Source: an uncultured Gammaproteobacteria bacterium
GTDB lineage: Bacteria > Patescibacteriota > Patescibacteriia > 2-01-FULL-39-33
DNA length: 47,325 nucleotides
NCBI GenBank assembly: GCA_964558935.1
Contig: CAZLFP010000006.1
Coordinates: 1 to 47,325 of the forward strand
Reading direction: 5' to 3'
The notes beneath the pieces were generated by a model. That model was not told the DNA's origin and searched no databases. It worked only from the letters and a program-made list of their open reading frames with translations. Shown here one piece after another: positions 198-32,129 of this stretch (its first letter is position 1; the number at the start of each line of letters is the position of its first letter). A program made the position numbers and the translations under genes.

Positions 198-1214
198 ATG
201 AATCAAAGTAAGGACAATTTATTTGCCAACCAACCCAAGTACCGCTTGGACCAGTTTTACCGAGCTTTATTTGATCCTCAGATTAAAGCTTGGGATGAGA
301 TAACAACCTTACCTCAGGCTTTAAGGAACCAATTAAATGAAAGCAAGCCTTTTTATGCTTTTGAAGCCAAAAAGATTTTAGAAGCTGAAGATAATTCTTC
401 ATATAAAGCTGTGTTTGAAACTCGGGATGAATTATTATTTGAAAGTGTGTTAATGAAAAACACCAGAGGTCAGTATACTATTTGTTTGTCCAGTCAGATT
501 GGTTGCAAAATGGGCTGCACTTTTTGCGCTACCGGACAAATGGGGTTTAAAAGAAATTTAACGGTTGAAGAAATCATTGACCAAGTCAGGTTCTGGCAAA
601 GATATGGAGATAAAGAGATTGAAGATTTCAGGATCAGTAATTTGGTGTTTATGGGTATGGGTGAACCTTTGGATAATTATGACAATGTAGTTAAAGCCAT
701 TGATTTGATTTTAGAATACACAGATATTGGCAAGACTAAGATTATAGTTTCAACAGTTGGTTTAATCGGGAAGTTGGAAAAGATTTTAACTGATCCGGCT
801 TGGCCTCAGGTTAGAATCGCCTTGTCCCTGCAAACTACGGATTATGCCACCAGAAAAGAATTAATCCCTGCAACCGAAAAAGATTTTTTTGACAAATTTA
901 AATCTTGGTCTCAAAGATATCTGAAAAAATACGGCAACCGGAATAATTACCTGACTTTTGAATATGTGATGATGAAAGGTAAAAATGACAGTTTAAAAGA
1001 TGCTGAGGGTTTAAGTCAGTATGCTCATGAGTGCCAGGTTGATAAGATAAACTTAATACCGTATAACTCAATTGGCTCTGATGTAAGTCGATCTGATTCT
1101 AAGAAGATAGAAGAGTTTAAAGAAAGATTGGAGGAGAAAGACTTGACTGTTACCATTAGAAAGAGTTTAGGCCAAGAGATTAAGGGAGCTTGTGGGCAAT
1201 TGGTTGGGAATTAA
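198..1214 (+). CDS. rlmN: 23S rRNA/tRNA A2503-type radical SAM methyltransferase RlmN
   Basis: radical-SAM CKMGCTFCATGQ (CxxxCxxC), RlmN/Cfr-like length, C-terminal GACGQL. Confidence 0.85.
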   Translation: MNQSKDNLFANQPKYRLDQFYRALFDPQIKAWDEITTLPQALRNQLNESKPFYAFEAKKILEAEDNSSYKAVFETRDELLFESVLMKNTRGQYTICLSSQIGCKMGCTFCATGQMGFKRNLTVEEIIDQVRFWQRYGDKEIEDFRISNLVFMGMGEPLDNYDNVVKAIDLILEYTDIGKTKIIVSTVGLIGKLEKILTDPAWPQVRIALSLQTTDYATRKELIPATEKDFFDKFKSWSQRYLKKYGNRNNYLTFEYVMMKGKNDSLKDAEGLSQYAHECQVDKINLIPYNSIGSDVSRSDSKKIEEFKERLEEKDLTVTIRKSLGQEIKGACGQLVGN

Positions 1215-1224
1215 AAAAAGAGTT

Positions 1225-1587
1225 TTATAACTCTTTTTTAAGTAACCGATAGACATCCTCAGGATACAATTCTCCTTTGTCTTTGCCCTTTAGTTTAGAT
1301 AAGCCGGTACAGCGAGCTACGTATTCGGCACAATCCGTACCACTCTTAATTTCAGATTCTAATTTTTGGTCATCAATATCTATGTTGTCCAAAAAGACAG
1401 CCTTTTTAAATTCCTGATCTTTTAACCTGTTTAAATCTGAAACTTTATACTTACCCTGACTGAAGCATTCATACACCTTGTTGTTTGAAACAATGCCGGT
1501 ATGCCAAAAACTGCCTTTGAAATTGGTTAAAGGCGGATAATCCTTAGGACGATCTTCCAAGGGAAGAAAAAAGATTTGTGAAGTCAT
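1225..1587 (-). CDS. hypothetical protein, possibly NlpC/P60-LRAT-like papain-fold hydrolase
   Basis: Start moved to ATG 1587 because the longer track ORF runs into tRNA-Pro. FWHTGIV...VYE and DCAEYVARC resemble the His / Cys motifs of LRAT-type hydrolases (weak). Confidence 0.5.
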   Translation of the reverse strand: MTSQIFFLPLEDRPKDYPPLTNFKGSFWHTGIVSNNKVYECFSQGKYKVSDLNRLKDQEFKKAVFLDNIDIDDQKLESEIKSGTDCAEYVARCTGLSKLKGKDKGELYPEDVYRLLKKEL

Positions 1588-1592
1588 AATTG

Positions 1593-1666
1593 TCGGGGTG
1601 AGAGGACTTGAACCTCCGGCCTCTTGGTCCCAAACCAAGCGCTCTAGCCAACTGAGCTACACCCCG
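1593..1666 (-). tRNA. tRNA-Pro (anticodon UGG)
   Basis: Cloverleaf read by hand: acceptor CGGGGTG/CACCCCG, anticodon arm CTTGG-TTTGGGA-CCAAG, T arm GGAGG-TTCAAGT-CCTCT. Confidence 0.9.
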
Positions 1667-1714
1667 TTAAAATAACAGTTAACAGCTTTAAAACCGTTAA
1701 CCGTTATTTGTCAG

Positions 1715-1786
1715 TGCCGAGGGGCAGGATCGAACTGCCGACACAAAGATTTTCAGTCTTCTGCTCTACCACTGAGCTACCTCGGC
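1715..1786 (-). tRNA. tRNA-Phe (anticodon GAA)
   Basis: Acceptor GCCGAGG/CCTCGGC, anticodon loop CTGAAAA, T arm GGCAG-TTCGATC-CTGCC. Confidence 0.9.
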
Positions 1787-1792
1787 CCACTG

Positions 1793-1866
1793 TGGGCAAT
1801 GGGGGACTCGAACCTCCGACCTCGTCGTTATCAGCGACGCGCTCTAACCAGCTGAGCTAATTGCCC
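1793..1866 (-). tRNA. tRNA-Ile (anticodon GAU)
   Basis: Acceptor GGGCAAT/ATTGCCC, anticodon arm CGTCG-CTGATAA-CGACG. Confidence 0.9.
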
Positions 1867-1881
1867 GAAATATACTACTCC

Positions 1882-1910
1882 AGTATAGCAAAAAAGGCTT
1901 AATTTGGCAA
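1882..1910 (-). promoter_or_regulatory. sigma70-like promoter of the tRNA Ile-Phe-Pro operon
   Basis: minus strand TTGCCA -17 nt- (TGC)TATACT, about 15 nt upstream of the tRNA-Ile 5' end. Confidence 0.55.
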
Positions 1911-1914
1911 GAGT

Positions 1915-2712
1915 TTAGACTTCTAGAATTTTTTTGGAGGCCATTAAACTTAAAGTACCGGCATATCTGCCTTTGCCCAAGAAAATCGGGTAAAAATCCT
2001 TGTCAGACTTAATCTGTTTTCTGTTGGCTGTACCTATTTTCTGACCCTTTGCAACCAATTTAAAATCTTTTAATTCTTTACTGGGCGTGAACTTATCTGA
2101 TACCTTGTAAATGTCAAAAATGGTGTATAGATCTTTGTTGGGGTAGGTGGTTTGCTGACCTTTTAAGACTCCCAGATTTCTTAAGATGGTTTTAACGTCT
2201 CTAACCGCTCTAGGATAATTACTCCCGGTTTTATCCGGACCGTATTCCAAAGCAAGGCCGGCTTTCACACTACCGATTAAAAAATTACCCTCACCAAAAA
2301 CCCTTTCTCTAGCCAGCATAACTTTCTTAATGGGAGTTATTCTTAATAACTGTTTGGTTTTGGAATTTAAATTAGTGATAACTGCAGCTTTATCAAAATT
2401 GGAATTGGTGGCATGAATGTCGATAACAATGTCAAAGTCTTTCAGTTCTTGTTTTAATTTGTAAGCCACCAAGTCTTCATGTCTGCCATTAGCTTTGCCG
2501 GGGAAAGCTCGATTCAAATCTTTTTGTATAAACCTTTTATTCAATTTAATGGCCGGTAGGTTGCCTAAAAAGAAAGCAATTAAGCCTTTCTCGTATTTTA
2601 AAGTTGCCAGTTTATCGATAACTTTCTGTCCAATAATTTCATCACCATGAACGCAACCCACAATGGCGATTTTAGGCTGGCCTTGTCCCAGTTGGTTGAT
2701 TTGATGTTTCAT
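1915..2712 (-). CDS. succinylglutamate desuccinylase/aspartoacylase (AstE/AspA) family zinc deacylase
   Basis: GCVHGDEIIG, DLNRAFPG and DIHAT motifs typical of the AstE/AspA branch of M14-like hydrolases. Confidence 0.75.
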   Translation of the reverse strand: MKHQINQLGQGQPKIAIVGCVHGDEIIGQKVIDKLATLKYEKGLIAFFLGNLPAIKLNKRFIQKDLNRAFPGKANGRHEDLVAYKLKQELKDFDIVIDIHATNSNFDKAAVITNLNSKTKQLLRITPIKKVMLARERVFGEGNFLIGSVKAGLALEYGPDKTGSNYPRAVRDVKTILRNLGVLKGQQTTYPNKDLYTIFDIYKVSDKFTPSKELKDFKLVAKGQKIGTANRKQIKSDKDFYPIFLGKGRYAGTLSLMASKKILEV

Positions 2713-2718
2713 TGTTTA

Positions 2719-2747
2719 ATTATAGCTAAATAGTTTGAGTTTACAAA
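2719..2747 (-). promoter_or_regulatory. promoter of the deacylase gene (leaderless layout)
   Basis: minus strand TTGTAA -16 nt- TATAAT, 6 nt, ATG at 2712. Confidence 0.4.
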
Positions 2748-2751
2748 GAGG

Positions 2752-2778
2752 AGAGCGCGAGCTTAAAACTCGCGCTCT
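2752..2778 (-). terminator. 10-bp GC-rich hairpin after ligase A
   Basis: AGAGCGCGAG-CTTAAAA-CTCGCGCTCT; only a weak U-rich tail on the minus strand. Confidence 0.5.
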
Positions 2779-2781
2779 AAT

Positions 2782-3576
2782 TCAGTTCTTGGCGGCTTCA
2801 CGGCAGATAATCAGGCAGAGTTTAGCCCAATTGACCATCAGCCGGATGTCGTCAGTCGTGTCAAACATCCTAAATTCGATCGCTCCATACTTGGAGATGC
2901 GAATCATGTCCCACCACATACCCAGATCCCGCTCAAACTGTTCGGTTCGAGCTCGCTGGTACAATCCGTGCAAATTGCGACAGGGAATCAGCTGAGGCGT
3001 GCGCTGGACATGCTGTTCAAACAGATGAACACGCTGACCCTGGCTGAAACTACCGATATCCACCAGATGATCGTAATGATCGATCAGGCGATCATAAACT
3101 CGGATAGCCGTTTTCAGATCCGGCATGCCAATTAGAATGTGGACGCTGGAGAGACGCCTAACCATGTCTCGACCGGCTTCAGACAGCCAGTTATTGGCAA
3201 TGTCTAGGTAGCGAGGATGATCTACGATCTGAGTCGGAATATCCGGTGGAGCAATCGGCCAGAAAACACGCTTAACTCCGACCGCTTGTTCCATTTCACC
3301 GGCCATCGCATCTATCTGTTTAATAGCTGCTTCCAACTCATGGCTCGAGCAGGGCTGAGCCAAACGTTCTTCAAAATGACTGACGTTGAATTCCGGTCCG
3401 AAGCAGTGCGACAGGCCATTGCAATGATGCATAACCCAGTCCATAACTGAGTCAATAGCTGGTACAGCTTGGTTGGTGGTTGGGTTAACCAGCTGGGATT
3501 CGCGTTCCCAGCCGATCTTCCAGGCATGATGGGGTTGAAACTGGAATTGTTCCACAAATCTTGTGATCTCTTTCAC
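2782..3576 (-). CDS. short GCS2/amidoligase-like carboxylate-amine ligase (glutamine-synthetase fold), paralog A
   Basis: GTG start 5 nt after GGAGG. KIGWERE, EER, VHILIGMPD and GAIEFRMFDTT resemble the G-x-E-x-E, HVHVG and T-x-E-x-R-x-x-D motifs of YbdK/GCS2-type ligases. About 100 aa shorter than YbdK. GC higher than the flanks. Confidence 0.55.
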   Translation of the reverse strand: MKEITRFVEQFQFQPHHAWKIGWERESQLVNPTTNQAVPAIDSVMDWVMHHCNGLSHCFGPEFNVSHFEERLAQPCSSHELEAAIKQIDAMAGEMEQAVGVKRVFWPIAPPDIPTQIVDHPRYLDIANNWLSEAGRDMVRRLSSVHILIGMPDLKTAIRVYDRLIDHYDHLVDIGSFSQGQRVHLFEQHVQRTPQLIPCRNLHGLYQRARTEQFERDLGMWWDMIRISKYGAIEFRMFDTTDDIRLMVNWAKLCLIICREAAKN

Positions 3577-3707
3577 GACTTCCTCCTATGTTGTTTAAGA
3601 CCAAGGGTGAGGTGTAATTACCTCAGACATATTCTTGATGTATAAATTAAGTTAGTAACTGGTCGATTAACCTAAATTCATTAAGAATATGTCTTAAGTA
3701 ATTAAAC

Positions 3708-3731
3708 AAAAAACTGACCCGGGTAGATCAG
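3708..3731 (-). terminator. intrinsic terminator of the Ile attenuator
   Basis: minus-strand RNA CUGAUCU-ACCC-GGGUCAG followed by UUUUUU (3713..3708), inside the 5' leader of ligase A. Confidence 0.6.
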
Positions 3732-3760
3732 TCGCGCTTGTAAAATTAAGACTAACCAAT

Positions 3761-3814
3761 CTACCTAAGATCAGGAATAATAATGTTAATAATAATTTGG
3801 TTAGCTTGTAACAT
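3761..3814 (-). CDS. leader peptide MLQANQIIINIIIPDLR (6 Ile codons)
   Basis: ATG 6 nt after a TATAAT box; 17 codons containing ATTx3-AAC-ATTx3; stop lies inside an antiterminator segment. Confidence 0.6.
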   Translation of the reverse strand: MLQANQIIINIIIPDLR

Positions 3815-3820
3815 AATTGT

Positions 3821-3848
3821 ATTATACCTTAAATCTGGGACTTGTCAA
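3821..3848 (-). promoter_or_regulatory. promoter of Ile leader / ligase A
   Basis: minus strand TTGACA (3848..3843) -16 nt- TATAAT (3826..3821). Confidence 0.6.
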
Positions 3849-3869
3849 ATAAAATAAAAGGGATATAAT
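3842..3869 (+). promoter_or_regulatory. promoter of the 62-aa gene, back-to-back with the ligase A promoter
   Basis: TTGTCA -16 nt- TATAAT; its -35 overlaps the minus-strand -35. Confidence 0.5.
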
Positions 3870-3896
3870 AATAGCAGGTAGTGAAAGGAGGTAGTA

Positions 3897-4085
3897 ATGG
3901 AAGACTTGCGCAAGAGAACGGAAGCCCAGATTCAAGAGATTTTGGGCGACGACAACATGTGGTATGCAGGTGAACGCTTAGGTCATTCACCCAACCCGAA
4001 CGAAGCGGCGATGCACTTTGTTAATCATGGCGGAGCAGCTGATTTTGCCCAACGCTGGGCAGAGTCGCATCGGGGCGTGGCGTAA
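3897..4085 (+). CDS. small hypothetical protein (62 aa)
   Basis: strong RBS GAAAGGAGG 6 nt before ATG; higher GC; no family recognised. Confidence 0.6.
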   Translation: MEDLRKRTEAQIQEILGDDNMWYAGERLGHSPNPNEAAMHFVNHGGAADFAQRWAESHRGVA

Positions 4086-4138
4086 GCCAGCCCCTTTAAT
4101 AGTCTTGACTTTTTTATGTAATTTAAGTTTAACATACT

Positions 4139-4164
4139 AACTAGCTGATGATAGGCTAGTTTTT
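4139..4164 (+). terminator. intrinsic terminator
   Basis: AACTAGC-9 nt loop-GCTAGTT then TTTC. Confidence 0.5.
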
Positions 4165-4184
4165 CTTAATTTAAGAGAAAGCTT

Positions 4185-4778
4185 ATGTCTGGTTATGGTT
4201 CAAATGACAATGTTGTTCAGGCAATAACCGATACCATAAAGAGATGGTTAAAGGATGATTTGAAATATAAATTTATAATTGGCCTTGATGGAAGAAGTGG
4301 GGTGGGTAAGACCAGTATTGCAAAACAAATAAAACAAAATTATAGGTGGATTGAGGTTGTTCATTTGGATTGTTTTATAAAAAAAATTAATCAAAAAAAG
4401 AAATTTGCAAGTATTAAAAATGACTCGGATTTAATTACAGCTGCTCAATGGTATGAGATTCAAAATTTAATGAAGACTATACATAATTTTAAAAATTCTA
4501 GTTCAAATAGCAAATGTTTAATTGTTGAAGGAATATTACTGCATGATATTCATAACAGATATAAGTGTTTTGATAAAATAATCCATTTGCAATTAAAAGA
4601 CAGTCAGGTTGAATTAAGAAATAAAATGAGAGCTTTAAGGAATTTTCAATCTTTATCTGATTTATCGTATACAGACAAAATTTGGCGAATATACAAACAG
4701 AAATATAATCCAGATAAAAATTCTGACTTAAATATTAATATTAGAATTGTTGACAAATTAATTGACGCCAATAAATAG
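4185..4778 (+). CDS. P-loop kinase, uridine-kinase-like
   Basis: Walker A GLDGRSGVGKTS; extremely AT-rich (12 G+C in 4381-4440). Confidence 0.5.
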   Translation: MSGYGSNDNVVQAITDTIKRWLKDDLKYKFIIGLDGRSGVGKTSIAKQIKQNYRWIEVVHLDCFIKKINQKKKFASIKNDSDLITAAQWYEIQNLMKTIHNFKNSSSNSKCLIVEGILLHDIHNRYKCFDKIIHLQLKDSQVELRNKMRALRNFQSLSDLSYTDKIWRIYKQKYNPDKNSDLNINIRIVDKLIDANK

Positions 4779-4816
4779 GGTGTTATACTAAAGATAAGAT
4801 TAATAAACACAAAATT

Positions 4817-5164
4817 ATGAGAGAAAAAATACCAGGTAGCAATGAGCAAATAAATGTTGATGCAGAAAATCAGGTGGAAAAAGGATCAGGTGACATTAAA
4901 GACCAGGAATATAATTCAATTATGGAAGAAATAGAATCAGCCTTTAAAAAGCAGGAAGAAATCGATGCTAAAGTAGATACTGGCGAATTAACAAGTGAAC
5001 AAGCTCAAGCTGAAATGAGAAAAATTCAAGAAGAAGTCGTTGATCCATTATTATACAAAAGAAGTGATAAGTTAGATGAATTGCTTGAAAATGGCACAAT
5101 AACTCAAGAACAGTTTGATGCCAATACGAATAGAATCATTAGCCCTGGCTTACTGGACTATTAA
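4817..5164 (+). CDS. hypothetical acidic coiled-coil protein
   Basis: long ORF, E/Q/K-rich, no recognisable domain. Confidence 0.45.
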   Translation: MREKIPGSNEQINVDAENQVEKGSGDIKDQEYNSIMEEIESAFKKQEEIDAKVDTGELTSEQAQAEMRKIQEEVVDPLLYKRSDKLDELLENGTITQEQFDANTNRIISPGLLDY

Positions 5165-5182
5165 AAGATTAGAAATGCTTTG

Positions 5183-5210
5183 AAATAATCTCTGTATTAG
5201 AGATTATTTT
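5183..5210 (+). terminator. intrinsic terminator
   Basis: AAATAATCTCT-GTATT-AGAGATTATTT with T run. Confidence 0.55.
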
Positions 5211-5214
5211 AAAT

Positions 5215-5243
5215 TTGACAGATTATAATTCTTAGATTACAAT
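5215..5243 (+). promoter_or_regulatory. promoter of the aromatic leader / pheA operon
   Basis: TTGACA -17 nt- TACAAT, 9 nt before the leader ATG. Confidence 0.6.
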
Positions 5244-5252
5244 TTAAATACA

Positions 5253-5315
5253 ATGAAAAAAATACATACAAACAATTGGTTTAGCTTTTATTTTACTGAC
5301 TGTATAGCCAGCTAG
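5253..5315 (+). CDS. leader peptide MKKIHTNNWFSFYFTDCIAS (W-F-S-F-Y-F)
   Basis: 20-codon ORF with 5 aromatic residues in a 6-codon stretch, stop inside the antiterminator stem, upstream of pheA. Confidence 0.65.
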   Translation: MKKIHTNNWFSFYFTDCIAS

Positions 5316-5342
5316 TTTTGTGTATATTGAGTAAAGAAGACT

Positions 5343-5367
5343 AACTGGCTGAAAGGTCGGTTTTTTT
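5343..5367 (+). terminator. attenuator terminator upstream of pheA
   Basis: AACTGGC-TGAAAG-GTCGGTT plus T run. Its 5' arm can instead pair with 5306-5318 (13-nt antiterminator with one mismatch and one wobble). Confidence 0.6.
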
Positions 5368-5384
5368 AATCATAAATAAGTATT

Positions 5385-5945
5385 ATGAAAATTGGAGTTT
5401 CCGGTGGTCCGGGCAGCTTCTCTGAAGAAGCGGCTGACTATTACTGCCATAAAAATAAATTGGCAGGTTATGAAATTAAGCATTTAATTTCCGTGGAAAA
5501 TGTTTTGCAAGCTTTGGAAAAAGATGAAATAGATATGGGGGTTTTTCCCATTGAAAATTCCAATGGTGGTATTGTGTATGAGGCAGTCTATGCCATGAGT
5601 CAGCATTTGTTTACAATCCAAAATCTGTTTGAAATAGATATTCGGCACAATCTCATTGCCCATCCTGAAGTTAATAAACAGGATATTACTTTAATTGCTT
5701 CTCATGACCAGGCTCTTAAACAGTGTAAGATGTATTTGAGAAGAGTTTGGCCAAAGGTGGAGATTAAGGAATGGGCAGATACGGCAGATTCTGTCAGAGC
5801 GATCAAAGACGGAGAACTGCCCAAGACTGCAGCCGGTATAGCTTCCAAAAAAGCGGCCGATCTGTATGGCATGCAGATTCTAGAAGAAGGTATCCAGGAT
5901 CTTAAATTCAATTTCACCACTTTTTTAGCGGTGACTAAGCAATAA
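5385..5945 (+). CDS. pheA: prephenate dehydratase domain protein (no ACT domain)
   Basis: GGPGSFSEEAA, PIENSNGG and SHDQALKQC motifs; ends right after NFTTF, where canonical PDTs have TRF. Confidence 0.75.
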   Translation: MKIGVSGGPGSFSEEAADYYCHKNKLAGYEIKHLISVENVLQALEKDEIDMGVFPIENSNGGIVYEAVYAMSQHLFTIQNLFEIDIRHNLIAHPEVNKQDITLIASHDQALKQCKMYLRRVWPKVEIKEWADTADSVRAIKDGELPKTAAGIASKKAADLYGMQILEEGIQDLKFNFTTFLAVTKQ

Positions 5946-5949
5946 TCAT

Positions 5950-6690
5950 ATGAAAATCGCAATCGTTGGCTTTGCCCGTTTCGGGCAGTTATGGGCCGAT
6001 TTAATGAAACAATTCGGACAAGTTATGGTTTTTAACCGATCTGACAAAGCTGATTTGGCTCAAGGTATGGAATTCTATACTTTTGACCGATTAGATAAAA
6101 TACAGGAGGCAGATTATATCTTTTGTTGCGTGGCTATGTCGGCCACTTTGGAAACTTTGGAAAGAATCAAGCCTTTTGTTAAAGATGGAGTAGTGGTTAT
6201 GGATGTATGCTCAGTTAAGGTTTTGCCTTGCCAATGGTTGGAAGAAGTTTTTGGTTCTGAAGCGGATCGGATAGAGATTATGGGGACTCACCCCATGTTC
6301 GGACCGGACAGTGCCAAAACTGGTTTAACAGATAAACAAATGGTATTGTGTCCTTTAAATATTAGTCAGGATAAGCTAGACTTTGTAAAAGGTATTTTTA
6401 ATGAATTGAAACTTAAAATTATCCAAACTACGCCTCAGGATCATGACCGACAGACAGCTTACAGTCTGGCCTTAGTTCATTATTTGGGGCGCGGCTTGGA
6501 TAGGCTGGATTTGGATTCCATTTACATTACCACGCTGGGCTTTGACCGCTTATTGGAAATTCACGGTAATGTGGTTAATGATTCCCAAGAGTTGTTTAAT
6601 GATTTGGAAAAACTGAATCCGTACGCTCAAGCTGCGAGACAGAAGTTAAGACAAGTTTTGGATGATCTGGAAACGGATCTAAACGGTTAG
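5950..6690 (+). CDS. tyrA: prephenate/arogenate dehydrogenase
   Basis: N-terminal Rossmann IAIVGFARFG, catalytic-region GTHPMFGP. Confidence 0.7.
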   Translation: MKIAIVGFARFGQLWADLMKQFGQVMVFNRSDKADLAQGMEFYTFDRLDKIQEADYIFCCVAMSATLETLERIKPFVKDGVVVMDVCSVKVLPCQWLEEVFGSEADRIEIMGTHPMFGPDSAKTGLTDKQMVLCPLNISQDKLDFVKGIFNELKLKIIQTTPQDHDRQTAYSLALVHYLGRGLDRLDLDSIYITTLGFDRLLEIHGNVVNDSQELFNDLEKLNPYAQAARQKLRQVLDDLETDLNG

Positions 6691-6709
6691 AAAAACCAAG
6701 GAGGAAGCA

Positions 6710-7879
6710 ATGGATATTCGCAGGGATCACATGCCGCCTTCATTGTTGCAAGAGTATGCAATTAAGGCCGGTCAAGAAGGAGTTGTTAGTTTGGCGATTG
6801 GGCAATCTGAAATGGAGCCACCTTCAGGATTGCTTAACCTAATCGTAGAGTACATTGTCAGAAAAGGCTATGCCCGTTACACGGCAGCGGTTGGAGATCG
6901 AGATGTCAGAAGCAAGTTGGTAGAACTTTTCAGCCGTCTGGGTGTTAAGGATTTGAATGTTGACCAAATAGCTATGAGTCACGGAGCCAAGCTACTGTTG
7001 GACGTATCCATGCGAGCCATGGCTGACATTGACGATGTGGTGATTTGGTTTTCCCCCGGCTATACTTACGGACGAACTGCCAAGCATAACCGAATTGAAT
7101 CCATCTGTTTGCCGACTGCAGATCATGGCTTCCGACCCGATCTGGAAGCTTTGAGCCGAGTGTTGGAGGATTTACCGGCTTGGAAAAAACCGATTGTCAT
7201 CGTTAACAATCCGGTTAATCCGACCGGTTGTGTCTGGCAAAAAGATGAACTTCAAGCTTTGGTGGAAATTCTGGCCAAGTACCGGGCCAAGGTGATTACG
7301 GATGAAACTTATGCTGATCTGGTTTTGGACGGTCCACCGATTACCTGTCTGGGTTCTTTTGATGACATTAGCGATCAAACCATTGTAATCCGTTCCGGTT
7401 CCAAAGAATTAAGAGCTCCGGCTTACCGGATTGGTTACATGGCTGTTCCTTTAAGCTACATGCCAAGAGTCAAGGACATTTTAAACGATTGTGTTGGCTG
7501 TCCTAATCTGTTGGCCAGACTGTCGGCTCCTTTCCTGTTGGAGCATCAAAGGTTCGCTCAGGAACAGTTGCCGGCTTTAAGAGCTAAATGTGGCTTGGTT
7601 GGAGAATGGTGCCGTCAGAATGGCCTGGTTCATGCTCCCATGGAAGGGGCTTTTTACAGCTTCATTGACTTTGATCCGATCTTGCAAGCCAAGGATTTTA
7701 AGGATACGATTGAATTGGCGGACCGCCTGCTGATTGAAGCCAAAGTCGGCATTATTCCGGGGCGAGCTTTCAGTTCGGCTCCCAAGCCGGATTGTGACAG
7801 CTGGGCCAGGATTTCCTTTGCCGGCGATAAGTTTGATTTGGTGGAGGGATTGGAGAGGATTAGCCGTTATATCGGCTGA
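6710..7879 (+). CDS. class I/II PLP-dependent aminotransferase
   Basis: NPVNPTG, SGSKELRAPAYRIGY (PLP lysine context); strong RBS AAGGAGG; GC above backbone. Confidence 0.8.
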   Translation: MDIRRDHMPPSLLQEYAIKAGQEGVVSLAIGQSEMEPPSGLLNLIVEYIVRKGYARYTAAVGDRDVRSKLVELFSRLGVKDLNVDQIAMSHGAKLLLDVSMRAMADIDDVVIWFSPGYTYGRTAKHNRIESICLPTADHGFRPDLEALSRVLEDLPAWKKPIVIVNNPVNPTGCVWQKDELQALVEILAKYRAKVITDETYADLVLDGPPITCLGSFDDISDQTIVIRSGSKELRAPAYRIGYMAVPLSYMPRVKDILNDCVGCPNLLARLSAPFLLEHQRFAQEQLPALRAKCGLVGEWCRQNGLVHAPMEGAFYSFIDFDPILQAKDFKDTIELADRLLIEAKVGIIPGRAFSSAPKPDCDSWARISFAGDKFDLVEGLERISRYIG

Positions 7880-7884
7880 AACTT

Positions 7885-7918
7885 GGTTGCTCCGGATCTG
7901 AAAAGATTCGGGGCAACC
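7885..7918 (+). promoter_or_regulatory. 15-bp hairpin right after the aminotransferase stop (no T run)
   Basis: GGTTGCTCCGGATCT-GAAA-AGATTCGGGGCAACC. Confidence 0.5.
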
Positions 7919-7937
7919 TCATATATAATTTAAAGAA

Positions 7938-7991
7938 ATGAAATATATAATTACAAATTGGTTTTTCTGGACTGATCATCCGGTCGGTTAG
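7938..7991 (+). CDS. leader peptide MKYIITNWFFWTDHPVG (W-F-F-W)
   Basis: 17-codon ORF. Homologous at DNA and peptide level to the 5253 leader (ACAAATTGGTTT, ACTGA). Its last codons CCG GTC GGT TAG form the antiterminator arm. Confidence 0.65.
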   Translation: MKYIITNWFFWTDHPVG

Positions 7992-8014
7992 TTTTTGAAA
8001 TATTTTTTTACTAC

Positions 8015-8037
8015 ACCGACCGTTTGGTCGGTTTTTT
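8015..8037 (+). terminator. attenuator terminator upstream of ligase B
   Basis: ACCGACC-GTTT-GGTCGGT plus T6. 8015-8022 can instead pair with 7981-7988 (8 Watson-Crick bp). Confidence 0.65.
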
Positions 8038-8107
8038 GTTTCCTGGTTTTGTCTTTTAATAGTTAAAAGGCAAAATGCGGCATCAAAAAAATGAGGAGGA
8101 ATCAAAC

Positions 8108-8911
8108 GTGCAGCAGTTCTTGGCTCTTTTCAATTTCAATCCGGATCATGCCTTCAAGGTAGGCGTTGAACGGGAATGTTTTCTAACCAAGAATGGTCAA
8201 ATTGTACCCATGGCTTTTGAAGTTCTAAGCCGGCTCAAGGCCAGTGTTAATGGACGGTCTCATTGCTATGGTTATGAGCTGTCGGCTTGTCAGTTGGAAG
8301 AGAGGACTTCCGGTCCGGTTATTCTGTCCGAGGTTGAAGCGGAATTGGAGCGTAATCATGAGGAGATTACGGCCATTTTAGAACCGCTTGGTTTAAAACG
8401 CTTATTTTGCGGAGCAGCACCCTTTGATGTACCATTGGATGTTTATCCGGACAAGCGTTACCAACGGATTACGTCTGATCAGTCGGTTGAATTTATCCGG
8501 GCGGCCTGTCGGGTGGCGGGTGTGCATATTCTAGTTGGCATGCCGGATGCTCAAACCGCCTTAAGGGTTTACAACCAAGTGATTCGGTATTTGCCTGAGC
8601 TGTTTGAATTGGGAGCTACGCCGGAGAGAATTGAAATCTACCGGCGCGCAGTACTCAAGAGTGAGCGTATTCAACTGTTTGAAGATTATCTGGTTGAAAC
8701 GTCTATTCCACCGGCTTACGCATCCTGGCAAGATTTTTACCACCGGGCAGTGGCAGATGGATTTGATTCTGACCCGCGTCGTTTGTGGGATTTCATTCGG
8801 ATTTCCAAGCATGGTGCCATTGAGTTTCGCACTTTTGACACCACTCAATCGATTCAACAAGTGCAAGATTGGGCCCATTACTGTTGGCAACTGTGTTTGA
8901 ACGCCGCCTAA
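8108..8911 (+). CDS. short GCS2/amidoligase-like carboxylate-amine ligase, paralog B
   Basis: GTG 8 nt after GGAGG preferred over the in-frame ATG 8075. Shares FxFxPxHAxKxGxERE, SHCxGxE, EER, VHILxGMPDxxTAxRVY and IRISKxGAIEFRxFDTT with the 2782..3576 protein. Confidence 0.55.
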   Translation: MQQFLALFNFNPDHAFKVGVERECFLTKNGQIVPMAFEVLSRLKASVNGRSHCYGYELSACQLEERTSGPVILSEVEAELERNHEEITAILEPLGLKRLFCGAAPFDVPLDVYPDKRYQRITSDQSVEFIRAACRVAGVHILVGMPDAQTALRVYNQVIRYLPELFELGATPERIEIYRRAVLKSERIQLFEDYLVETSIPPAYASWQDFYHRAVADGFDSDPRRLWDFIRISKHGAIEFRTFDTTQSIQQVQDWAHYCWQLCLNAA

Positions 8912-8996: not shown

Positions 8997-9070
8997 CGGG
9001 GTATAGCTCAGTTGGCTAGAGCGCTACGTTCGGGACGTAGAAGTCGTCCGTTCAAGTCGGATTACCCCGA
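8997..9070 (+). tRNA. tRNA-Pro (anticodon CGG)
   Basis: Acceptor CGGGGTA/TACCCCG, anticodon arm CTACG-TTCGGGA-CGTAG. Confidence 0.9.
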
Positions 9071-9079
9071 TTGGAATAA

Positions 9080-9153
9080 CGGGCTGTAGCTCAGTTGGCT
9101 AGAGTGCGCGCATGGGGTGCGTGAGGTCGTGGGTTCAAGTCCCGCCAGCCCGA
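9080..9153 (+). tRNA. tRNA-Pro (anticodon GGG)
   Basis: Acceptor CGGGCTG/CAGCCCG, anticodon arm CGCGC-ATGGGGT-GCGTG. Confidence 0.8.
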
Positions 9154-9162
9154 TATGTATTT

Positions 9163-9235
9163 GCGGGTATAGTATAATGGTTTATTATGCCAGCCTTCCA
9201 AGCTGGAGATACGGGTTCGATTCCCGTTACCCGCT
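9163..9235 (+). tRNA. tRNA-Gly (anticodon UCC)
   Basis: Acceptor GCGGGTA/TACCCGC, anticodon arm CCAGC-CTTCCAA-GCTGG. Confidence 0.85.
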
Positions 9236-32045: not shown

Positions 32046-32056
32046 ATATTTTGCAG

Positions 32057-32129
32057 TAGGCCAGGGTGGGATTGAACCACCGACCCCAACGTTATAAGCG
32101 TTGTGCTCTAACCCCTGAGCTACTGGCCC
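32057..32129 (-). tRNA. tRNA-Ile (anticodon UAU)
   Basis: Acceptor GGGCCAG/CTGGCCT (G1-U72), anticodon arm CAACG-CTTATAA-CGTTG, T arm GGTGG-TTCAATC-CCACC. Confidence 0.8.

Follow-up and report, generated by a model that had tools for sequence, protein, structure and literature searches.

What role is served by two short ligases of the glutamine-synthetase fold that each stand behind a predicted sensor of tRNA charging? The question is raised by 47,325 nucleotides of contig CAZLFP010000006.1 (assembly GCA_964558935.1; this whole stretch is called the window below), from a member of the Patescibacteria (candidate phyla radiation), a group of ultra-small symbionts, for the most part uncultured, that are unable to synthesise most amino acids. 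The two genes, paralog A (2782..3576, minus strand, 264 residues) and paralog B (8108..8911, plus strand, 267 residues), encode short carboxylate-amine ligases of the glutamine synthetase/glutamate-cysteine ligase (GS/GCL) fold. The explanation that we favour, with a probability of about 0.6, is that these are ligases gated by tRNA charging that act with a hydrolase partner in amino-acid supply. Within it, the predicted control of A and B by tRNA-charging-dependent transcription attenuation is very likely, being supported in silico and by conservation. Overall, the data point to an undescribed amino-acid supply module in Patescibacteria.

Leader peptides and predicted attenuators in the window

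A preliminary description of this locus had named the two open reading frames (ORFs) as paralogs and had placed each behind a leader-peptide attenuator of its own, with different codons (Ile for A, W-F-F-W for B). These claims were borne out. Both ORFs are present, and BLASTP aligned their products with 35% identity over 270 columns (E 5e-53), an alignment in which all five motifs quoted in that description are visible. Each ORF starts with a GTG lying 5–8 nt 3′ of a strong Shine-Dalgarno sequence (AGGAGG for A; GAGGAGG at 8093-8099 for B). For paralog B, the start at 8108 was preferred over an upstream ATG at 8075 because its GTG lies shortly after the strong Shine-Dalgarno sequence. A terminator and alternative folds were found in front of both genes.

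Leader peptide A (MLQANQIIINIIIPDLR, then a stop codon; 3814..3761, minus strand) is preceded by a promoter that matches the sigma-70 consensus at 12 of 12 positions in a promoter scan (TTGACA-16-TATAAT, 3848..3821, minus). All six of its Ile codons are ATT and they fall within seven consecutive codons; the ATG lies 6 nt past the −10 box, without a Shine-Dalgarno sequence. In attenuator A (3706..3774, minus), the final codons of the leader and the bases after them (3774-3752) can pair with 3735-3714, and this antiterminator occupies the 5′ arm of the terminator hairpin (3733..3712, followed by a T-run). With a ribosome placed in silico on the first Ile codons, the antiterminator was the minimum-energy fold (−24.2 kcal/mol), and with the ribosome on the stop codon only the terminator was left. 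When the window (47 kb, both strands) was scanned for ATG mini-ORFs followed by a terminator, six identical residues within an eight-residue span were seen in the Ile leader and otherwise in a single poly-Lys ORF, which runs antisense inside a gene. A second near-consensus promoter (TTGTCA-16-TATAAT, 11/12, in the region 3821-3869, plus strand) lies back-to-back with that of leader A and faces a 62-residue ORF (3897-4085, plus) without a family match.

On the other strand, a −10 box (TATAAT, 7924..7929, plus) ends 8 nt before the ATG of leader peptide B (MKYIITNWFFWTDHPVG, then a stop codon; 7938..7991, plus), a mini-ORF that contains the codon run W-F-F-W. Attenuator B (7970..8038, plus) has a 1:2 hairpin at 7970..7989, an antiterminator that pairs about 7981-7993 with about 8010-8022, and a terminator at 8015..8032 with a T-run (ACCGACC-GTTT-GGTCGGT-TTTTTG, 8015..8038). 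In silico, a ribosome stalled on W8, F9 or F10 gave the antiterminator (−23.4 and −16.1 kcal/mol), and a ribosome on W11 or on the stop codon gave the terminator. We found no convincing −35 box upstream of the TATAAT; therefore read-through into leader B from the preceding aminotransferase gene is also possible. Directly after the stop codon of that gene lies a long imperfect hairpin (GGTTGCTCCGGATC...GATTCGGGGCAACC, 7884-7918, plus) without a T-run, which may end the upstream operon or may let transcription reach leader B.

A third attenuator (5215..5369, plus), which the preliminary description did not include, stands before the aromatic amino-acid genes upstream of B. It comprises a promoter (5215..5243, 11/12), a leader peptide (MKKIHTNNWFSFYFTDCIAS, then a stop codon; 5253..5315) with the codons W-F-S-F-Y-F, and a terminator (5343..5362) with a T-run; ribosome-position folding again gave the antiterminator or the terminator as expected. 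The genes that follow on the same strand, as identified with Pfam and NCBIfam, encode a prephenate dehydratase (5385..5945), a prephenate dehydrogenase (5950..6690) and a class I/II aminotransferase (6710..7879). The dehydratase, at 186 residues, is a catalytic domain only and lacks the C-terminal ACT domain through which such enzymes are usually regulated; feedback control may therefore have been taken over by the leader peptide. The third leader is nearly the same as one that stands before a ligase gene in a related genome (NNWFSFFFTD, locus L001), and the order prephenate dehydrogenase, aminotransferase, leader, ligase recurs in a metagenomic contig (L082).

All three leader ORFs (starts at 3814, 5253 and 7938) begin 6–9 nt past a −10 box and have no Shine-Dalgarno sequence, whereas those of the structural genes are strong. 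The leader transcripts therefore probably belong to the leaderless type of mRNA. Clustered codons for one amino acid or one class of amino acids lie between promoter and gene in the leaders of A, B and the prephenate dehydratase operon. In the same three, and in four related loci (L001, L004, L009 and L067), an antiterminator overlapping the last part of the leader ORF excludes the terminator, and folding in silico switches between the two. Leaders of the B type are also kept in orthologous loci, with aromatic leaders in more than 20 relatives. At the gathering threshold, Rfam found only tRNAs in the window, and no leader or riboswitch family in 2782-8911.

The anatomy is that of the classical attenuators of Escherichia coli (trp, pheA, ilvGMEDA, ilvBN, thr, his and leu), with the same codon run, the same 1:2, 2:3 and 3:4 pairings with a T-run, and a leader stop codon inside the antiterminator strand. 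Unlike in those systems, the controlled gene encodes a ligase rather than a biosynthetic enzyme for the sensed amino acid, the leaders lack Shine-Dalgarno sequences and are probably leaderless, and the host is a Patescibacterium.

Predicted tryptophan sensors upstream of related ligases

Are such sensors a property of these two genes or of their family? We analysed 80 genome loci that encode family members, all in metagenome-assembled genomes of Patescibacteria. A T-box riboswitch lies upstream of the ligase in 53 of the 80, counting distal copies and variants. In most loci the conserved upstream RNA carries the T-box sequence AAGGUGGCACCGCG and then a terminator. A strict core motif, GGUGGNANC[AG]CG, occurs 56 times in the 80 loci; automatic assignment put 44 of these directly before the ligase, which became 46 loci after two were corrected. 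The motif never stands before the gene for tryptophanyl-tRNA synthetase (TrpRS) in these loci. In the window it is absent from both strands, and there is no Rfam match to a T-box.

The Rfam T-box model (RF00230) scored these elements at 23–39 bits, below its gathering score of 93; E-values ran from 1.9e-5 to 0.27 when 38 kb were searched, and a local search gave 1.9e-7. At the gathering threshold, 15 of the related loci yielded only tRNAs, and the T-boxes surfaced only with E-value thresholds. The model nevertheless aligns every element: the K-turn, a shortened stem I, stem II with its S-turn, the stem IIA/B F-box, stem III and the antiterminator. The short hairpin that forms stem I has compensatory changes in 11 of its 13 pairs and a 5-nt bulge on the 3′ side. 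T-boxes with such a short stem I are widespread in Patescibacteria (L005-L079, about 100–330 nt upstream of the ligase; for example L019:84-420 and L013:874-1101), and standard annotation misses them because they score so far below the gathering threshold. Two further copies of the core motif with a different upstream architecture (L064, about 1093, and L066, about 521, both minus strand) face regulated genes that lie beyond the fetched DNA.

Which tRNA do these T-boxes read? The bulge reads N-UGG-G, and the specifier is UGG (Trp) in all 45 evaluable leaders. As a control for the frame we used a similarly built T-box with a short stem I (L074:430-830) upstream of a SerA-like gene of 409 codons (825..2054), in which the bulge reads U-UCG-G and the specifier UCG is that of Ser. 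In the antiterminator, the bulge reads UGGC in 36 leaders and UGGU in another 10; each fits a G73 discriminator, and G73 is present in all 12 neighbouring tRNA-Trp genes inspected. The relatives thus have the UGGN bulge, the antiterminator/terminator pair and the stem I specifier of a T-box. We considered a Leu specifier (UUG/CUG, read one base 5′ of UGG) and rejected it: UGG never changes, in contrast to the first base of the bulge (U in 36, C in 7, A in 1), the specifier of L038 would become AUG, the frame is set by the Ser control, the discriminator fits tRNA-Trp, and the neighbouring genes are those for tRNA-Trp and TrpRS. Recurring mini-ORFs in the relatives (MxSAxVEIRxPP and MSAARRLSR) were likewise rejected as conserved peptides, being frame artefacts of the T-box stem II and pseudoknot region.

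These T-boxes share with the Trp T-boxes of Firmicutes (trpS, the trp operon and rtpA) the UGGN bulge, the antiterminator/terminator, the UGG specifier followed by a purine, stem II with its S-turn, the stem IIA/B F-box and stem III. They differ in that stem I is about 53 nt (85 in the Rfam model) with the specifier in a 5-nt bulge, and in that the regulated gene is the ligase and not trpS, which adjoins it unregulated.

The loci closest to paralog B have no T-box and use leader peptides with terminators instead. In 15 of the genome loci (L001-L004, L009, L024, L039, L041, L053, L054, L059, L067, L068, L075 and L080, of which L041 is probable only), the ligase or its operon is preceded by a Trp or aromatic leader with a terminator, and the same holds for six metagenomic relatives of B (L081, L082 and L085-L088). 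Besides that of L001, the genome loci provide NGWQFFFFTE (L002), NNWRSEMTD (L003), GNFFFWLNTD (L004), NNFWWTWQ (L009), SQNWRKG (L054), KKLAWWAYRN (L067) and YTFIYWFGF (L080); the metagenomic contigs provide SFFFIYFYFF (L081), NNYYFWFTG (L082), NSWFFFFTD (L085 and L086), NNVFFFWYFTD (L087) and KFFSFWFFAD (L088). In operons that begin with an M20 deacylase gene, a leader of the type ..Q.NNWHHNH.. precedes that gene.

Across the 80 loci, we therefore counted 53 with a T-box, 15 with a Trp/aromatic leader peptide, two cut by the contig end and 10 with no recognised sensor. An upstream sensor (a Trp T-box or a Trp/aromatic leader) accompanies the ligase in 68 of the 78 evaluable loci, and the association of orthologs with such elements, whose absence would have told against the preliminary description, is present. 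That description had also assigned aromatic and Ile specificities to the sensors. For the family as a whole this can be refined: the signal common to its members is Trp, and Phe and Tyr codons are added in the clade of B.

One gene family is thus predicted to be under tRNA-charging control by two unrelated mechanisms, T-boxes in some lineages and leader-peptide attenuators in others, and their common denominator is tryptophan. That T-boxes and leaders converge on one family argues strongly, if indirectly, that the window's leaders work as sensors. As most relatives have a T-box predicted to read tRNA-Trp (UGG), the family would be a member of a tryptophan-limitation regulon. The preliminary description knew of no GCS2 or amidoligase enzyme regulated in this way, and our search of the full-text literature found none under T-box or leader-peptide control either (the 2009 amidoligase survey of Iyer et al. 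lay outside its coverage). The same literature, judged in part by titles and abstracts, yielded no T-box or leader-peptide attenuator in Patescibacteria.

Ligase fold and the origin of paralog A

Judged by their predicted structures, A and B are with high confidence ATP-dependent carboxylate-amine ligases in fold and activity class. AlphaFold (AF2) models were obtained with a predicted local distance difference test score (pLDDT) of 89 and a predicted template-modelling score (pTM) of 0.87 for B, and with a pLDDT of 94.6 and pTM of 0.91 for A. The top Foldseek match was YbdK for both (for B, 1r8g, E 1e-10, template-modelling (TM) score 0.73; for A, E 2e-8, TM score 0.72), and after YbdK (1r8g and 1tt4) came plant GCL (2gwc), the ligase domain of GshF and glutamine synthetases. 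Both models have a catalytic fold of the glutamine-synthetase/GCL type. The GCS2/YbdK ligase fold that had been proposed from the motifs was recovered by profile and structure searches alike, neither of which placed the proteins in a non-ligase fold.

Sequence profiles gave weaker matches. Pfam GCS2 (PF04107) matched B with 34.9 bits (E 1.4e-8), above the gathering score of 21 bits, and A had no Pfam match at E ≤ 0.1 and so did not reach that score; the membership of A in GCS2/YbdK rests on its paralogy to B and on its fold. Both proteins matched the NCBIfam models for YbdK and for the haloarchaeal-type glutamate-cysteine ligase/GshA weakly and below threshold, over model positions of about 2–255 of 290–380. 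For the YbdK model (TIGR02050, cut-off 176.4 bits) the scores were 71.3 bits for B and 40.3 for A, and the best NCBIfam scores were 71–79 bits against cut-offs of 176–409. Amidoligase_2 (PF12224) matched neither protein in the Pfam search; among 23 family members tested, 17 matched GCS2 and 10 matched Amidoligase_2 (best E 4.4e-6). A family profile run against PDB sequences found only YbdK (1r8g and 1tt4, E about 0.005).

That profile aligns with residues of about 30–279 of YbdK, whose chains have 372–396 residues. The full-length YbdK architecture (about 370 residues with a C-terminal region) is therefore not what A and B have: at 264 and 267 residues they lack about 100 C-terminal residues, the shortfall that had been noted in the preliminary description. 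What they do keep is the catalytic apparatus. Both paralogs have E21, R22, E23, E57, E64, H140, R231, E239 and R241 (numbered as in B), and in the alignment with YbdK all of these are identical except E57, which is opposite an Asp. The family-invariant motifs GxERE, YELS..QLEE, VH.h.GM, IRIS and G.IEFR are likewise kept in A and B, and their YbdK counterparts in the sequence alignment are GIELE, ..LE, HVHVG, IRPS and GTVEVR. A conserved Glu/His/Arg set of the kind used for metal, ATP and acyl-phosphate chemistry thus appears, from sequence, to be retained in both.

A search with B returned 380 homologs, nearly all of 250–290 residues, and every source that names an organism is a Patescibacterium; an exhaustive search with A returned 168 clusters. 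Within the YbdK/GCS2 glutamine-synthetase-fold superfamily, paralogs A and B fall in a branch that is specific to Patescibacteria and shortened at the C terminus. With E. coli YbdK and the other GCS2 enzymes, such as haloarchaeal GshA and mycobacterial EgtA, they share the GS/GCL fold and the Glu/His/Arg metal and nucleotide residues. They differ in length, in sequence (14–16% identity in the Foldseek alignments, and scores below the NCBIfam cut-offs) and in context: we found no described GCS2 member whose gene stands among tRNA-charging sensors, a deacylase partner and the genes for tRNA-Trp and TrpRS. Classical attenuators and T-boxes are both familiar types of regulator, and the enzyme is from a known superfamily, falling short of several marks of YbdK membership; its function may prove new. 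The regulatory signal gives physiological context to several hundred proteins that are currently named 'hypothetical' or 'glutamate-cysteine ligase family'.

Where does paralog A come from? An exhaustive HMMER search of 1.84 billion cluster representatives found no ortholog of A with more than 36% identity, a word-index search with A gave three matches, and its nearest relatives are B and the orthologs of B. Paralog A differs from the family at 29 of the 74 columns that are at least 90% conserved, and B at 5. The AstE-like protein encoded next to A is an ordinary ortholog of the partner proteins in L001-L003 (53–55% identity), and B has diverged from the ligases of these loci to the same extent. 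Leader A aligns with the aromatic leaders, its tail PDLR before the stop codon resembles the TDLR of L001, L003 and L087, and the step from Phe (TTT) to Ile (ATT) takes one base change per codon. The simplest history suggested by these sequences is that A is a fast-diverging duplicate that arose in this lineage and in which the sensed amino acid changed from aromatic to Ile; its substrate has probably changed too. In this genome the duplicate thus appears retargeted from aromatic amino acids to isoleucine, both in its leader codons and in many conserved non-catalytic residues. Beyond anatomy, this proposed history is the one support for the Ile leader.

Partner genes, proposed role and rival explanations

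The gene after A encodes a zinc deacylase of the AstE/AspA type (1915..2712, minus; Pfam PF24827, 68 bits). An enzyme of this type lies directly downstream of the ligase, on the same strand, in 51 of the 80 loci, a count that includes the gene after A, and the protein in the window falls in the same cluster as the partners in its relatives. Between A and the AstE-like gene are a strong 12-bp GC-rich hairpin (2778..2752), which has no proper T-run, and a site resembling a promoter (2746..2719, 10/12), and the deacylase may have its own transcription start. Elsewhere, the partner is a GGACT/AIG2 gamma-glutamyl cyclotransferase downstream of the ligase (8 loci), a peptidase C26/class I amidotransferase nearby (3 genome loci, L087 and L088), a class II amidotransferase (GATase_4) nearby (2 loci) or an M20 deacylase of the ArgE/DapE type (9 loci), which lies directly upstream where the arrangement was checked and often accompanies a GNAT domain fused to the ligase. 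GNAT acetyltransferase domains, fused to the ligase or directly upstream of it, were seen in L059 (4458-5861), L024, L027, L039 and L075; in the GNAT-ligase loci the M20 deacylase gene comes first and an NNWHHNH-type leader precedes the operon. These partner enzymes would all cleave gamma-glutamyl or N-acyl amides, and the ligase therefore probably makes such an amide.

The family is also linked to tryptophan by its neighbours. A TrpRS gene (TIGR00233, 306 bits) lies within 5 kb of the ligase in 33 of the 80 loci, and a tRNA-Trp gene lies near it in 20; tRNA-Trp thus accounts for half of the 40 tRNA genes detected in these loci. The tRNA-Trp(CCA) gene is often directly 3′ of the deacylase on the same strand (for example L025:6716-6790, L036:6700-6771 and L076:6598-6673), and may for this reason be co-transcribed with the ligase-deacylase pair under T-box control. 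A fusion of a type II chorismate mutase with an S-adenosylmethionine-dependent methyltransferase (about 385 residues; for example L008:3203-4354) adjoins TrpRS in 14 loci, in several of them directly downstream and in the same orientation. Downstream of the A/AstE pair, in the same orientation, the window has genes for tRNA-Ile(GAU), tRNA-Phe(GAA) and tRNA-Pro(UGG) (1592-1866, minus), and after B it has genes for tRNA-Pro(CGG), tRNA-Pro(GGG) and tRNA-Gly (8997-9235, plus). The order after A/AstE mirrors the placement of tRNA-Trp in the relatives, and this tRNA-Ile reads the ATT codons of leader A; a tRNA-Pro(GGG) gene also follows the ligase-AstE pair in L001 and L002. Across the phylum, the ligase-hydrolase pair, encoded near tRNA-Trp and TrpRS, appears to be the chief target of tryptophan-tRNA sensing.

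How might such a pair serve amino-acid supply? In the mechanism that we propose, the mini-ORF would be translated, probably on a leaderless mRNA, and the ribosome-mediated attenuator would be the sensor. A ribosome stalled on the Ile codons (A) or on the Trp/Phe codons (B) would allow the antiterminator to form and RNA polymerase to enter the ligase gene, and a ribosome that reached the stop codon would cover the antiterminator strand and let the terminator form; in most relatives, a T-box reading tRNA-Trp (UGG) would do the same job. The ligase would then convert the sensed hydrophobic amino acid, or a near derivative of it, into an amide conjugate, most likely a gamma-glutamyl one, and the partner hydrolase (of the AstE/AspA type here; GGACT, C26, class II amidotransferase-type or M20 elsewhere) would release the amino acid, so that the two act as a capture or salvage module feeding the cognate aminoacyl-tRNA synthetase. 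This specific chemistry is tentative. A fuller version, 'trap and release', is more speculative: uncharged tRNA would switch on ligase and amide hydrolase, and permeant hydrophobic amino acids (Trp; Phe and Tyr in sub-lineages; Ile also in this genome) might be held as charged gamma-glutamyl or acyl conjugates and then released to the synthetase. If true, ATP-driven acquisition of amino acids would replace the absent biosynthesis, with a specificity that co-evolves with the leader codons.

A similar pairing of an ATP-dependent amide ligase with an enzyme that cleaves gamma-glutamyl or acyl amides (C26, GGACT or amidase) is known, as regards gene content, from PuuA/PuuD, BtrJ/BtrG and glutathionylspermidine synthetase/amidase. 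PuuA/PuuD gamma-glutamylates putrescine, BtrJ/BtrG provides a protective gamma-glutamylation and glutathionylspermidine synthetase/amidase is bifunctional. These systems serve amine catabolism, antibiotic biosynthesis and thiol/polyamine storage, and we know of none that is under tRNA-charging control. With the ligase-hydrolase pair, amino-acid acquisition or homeostasis in Patescibacteria has a concrete candidate that experiments can address.

Several points weigh against the supply reading. Its main weakness is that a ligase and a hydrolase acting on the same bond would be a futile cycle unless something intervenes; a ligase that consumes the scarce amino acid also looks counter-productive. 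In this genome, B has no adjacent hydrolase, and the hairpin and promoter-like site part A from the AstE-like gene, which makes their co-transcription uncertain. As A has no ortholog, the case for the Ile leader is one of anatomy and of resemblance to the aromatic leaders, and in an AT-rich spacer a run of ATT may be fortuitous. Among the relatives, 10 of the 80 loci have no recognisable sensor, and the T-box scores are far under the Rfam gathering score.

One rival is an amino-group-protection route in the style of ArgA/ArgE, DapD/DapE, LysX/LysK or BtrJ/BtrG, in which the ligase puts a protecting acyl or gamma-glutamyl group on a host-derived precursor, an unlinked step converts the precursor, and the deacylase frees Trp (Ile for A), so that the hydrolase does not simply reverse the ligase. 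Every alternative partner is of a deprotecting type (AstE/AspA, M20 ArgE/DapE/LysK-like, GGACT, C26 and GATase_4), some operons add the GNAT acyltransferase fused to the ligase with the M20 deacylase upstream, and the regulation is typical of a supply pathway. We nevertheless consider this route unlikely, as the operons provide no conserved candidate for the intermediate step, most consist of ligase and hydrolase alone, and Patescibacteria are generally without amino-acid biosynthesis.

It is more doubtful that the ligase serves detoxification, with an analogue or inhibitor of the cognate tRNA synthetase raising the level of uncharged tRNA and the ligase inactivating this inhibitor by amide formation. 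The signal sensed by T-boxes and leaders is indeed uncharged tRNA. L034, L036, L058 and L069 each have two TrpRS-type genes no more than 5 kb from the ligase, and synthetase paralogs are also seen in resistance; moreover, the GNAT domains fused to ligases match resistance acetyltransferase models, albeit weakly. However, the wide and stable conservation across many Patescibacteria classes, beside housekeeping tRNA-Trp and TrpRS genes, suggests a core role, and we found no resistance-specific marker.

More doubtful still is the idea that A and B are ordinary gamma-glutamylcysteine ligases of the YbdK/GshA/EgtA type that make a low-molecular-weight thiol, with upstream elements unrelated to this role. 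The top matches to profile models (haloarchaeal-type glutamate-cysteine ligase and YbdK) and to structures (YbdK and GCL) would suit it. Against it, the NCBIfam scores are far under the cut-offs, the C-terminal third of YbdK is absent, the sensors read Trp, aromatic residues or Ile and never Cys, and the neighbours are tRNA-Trp and TrpRS.

It is very improbable that the ligase modifies a protein or the translation apparatus (by gamma-glutamyl addition of the Pup ligase/Dop, RimK or tubulin-glutamylase type), reversed by an M14/AstE-like or GGACT partner, and so tunes translation when tRNA-Trp is uncharged: the tight linkage of ligase genes to those for tRNA-Trp and TrpRS would fit, the Pup ligase PafA and the deamidase Dop share this fold superfamily, deglutamylases are known among M14 enzymes and GGACT acts on gamma-glutamyl-epsilon-lysine, but there is no conserved gene for a Pup-like or other substrate protein nearby, and the PDB search puts A and B closest to YbdK/GCL. 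There is similarly very little to be said for chance mini-ORFs in AT-rich spacers, with plain terminators or stabilisers and with ligases that are constitutive or otherwise regulated, for although leader A is unique, such spacers do contain simple ATT/TAA repeats (L002 has them at its start, for instance) and no −35 box was found for leader B, a terminator between promoter and gene is senseless without a switch, aromatic leaders recur in the relatives, a Trp T-box occupies the same place in most loci, ribosome-position folding yields the expected alternatives and the window scan found no comparable ORFs.

Some other features lie near these genes. Two clusters of neighbouring proteins (cluster 15, 339 residues, and cluster 9, 326 residues) had no match in Pfam, NCBIfam or PDB sequences. 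A group II pyridoxal-phosphate-dependent decarboxylase, for which the closest models are tyrosine and histidine decarboxylases, is encoded near the ligase in L018 (6448-7845) and in five other loci. Further along the window, ARAGORN predicted a tRNA-Ile with the anticodon UAU (32056-32129, minus), which is rare in bacteria, adjoining a tRNA-Val(GAC).

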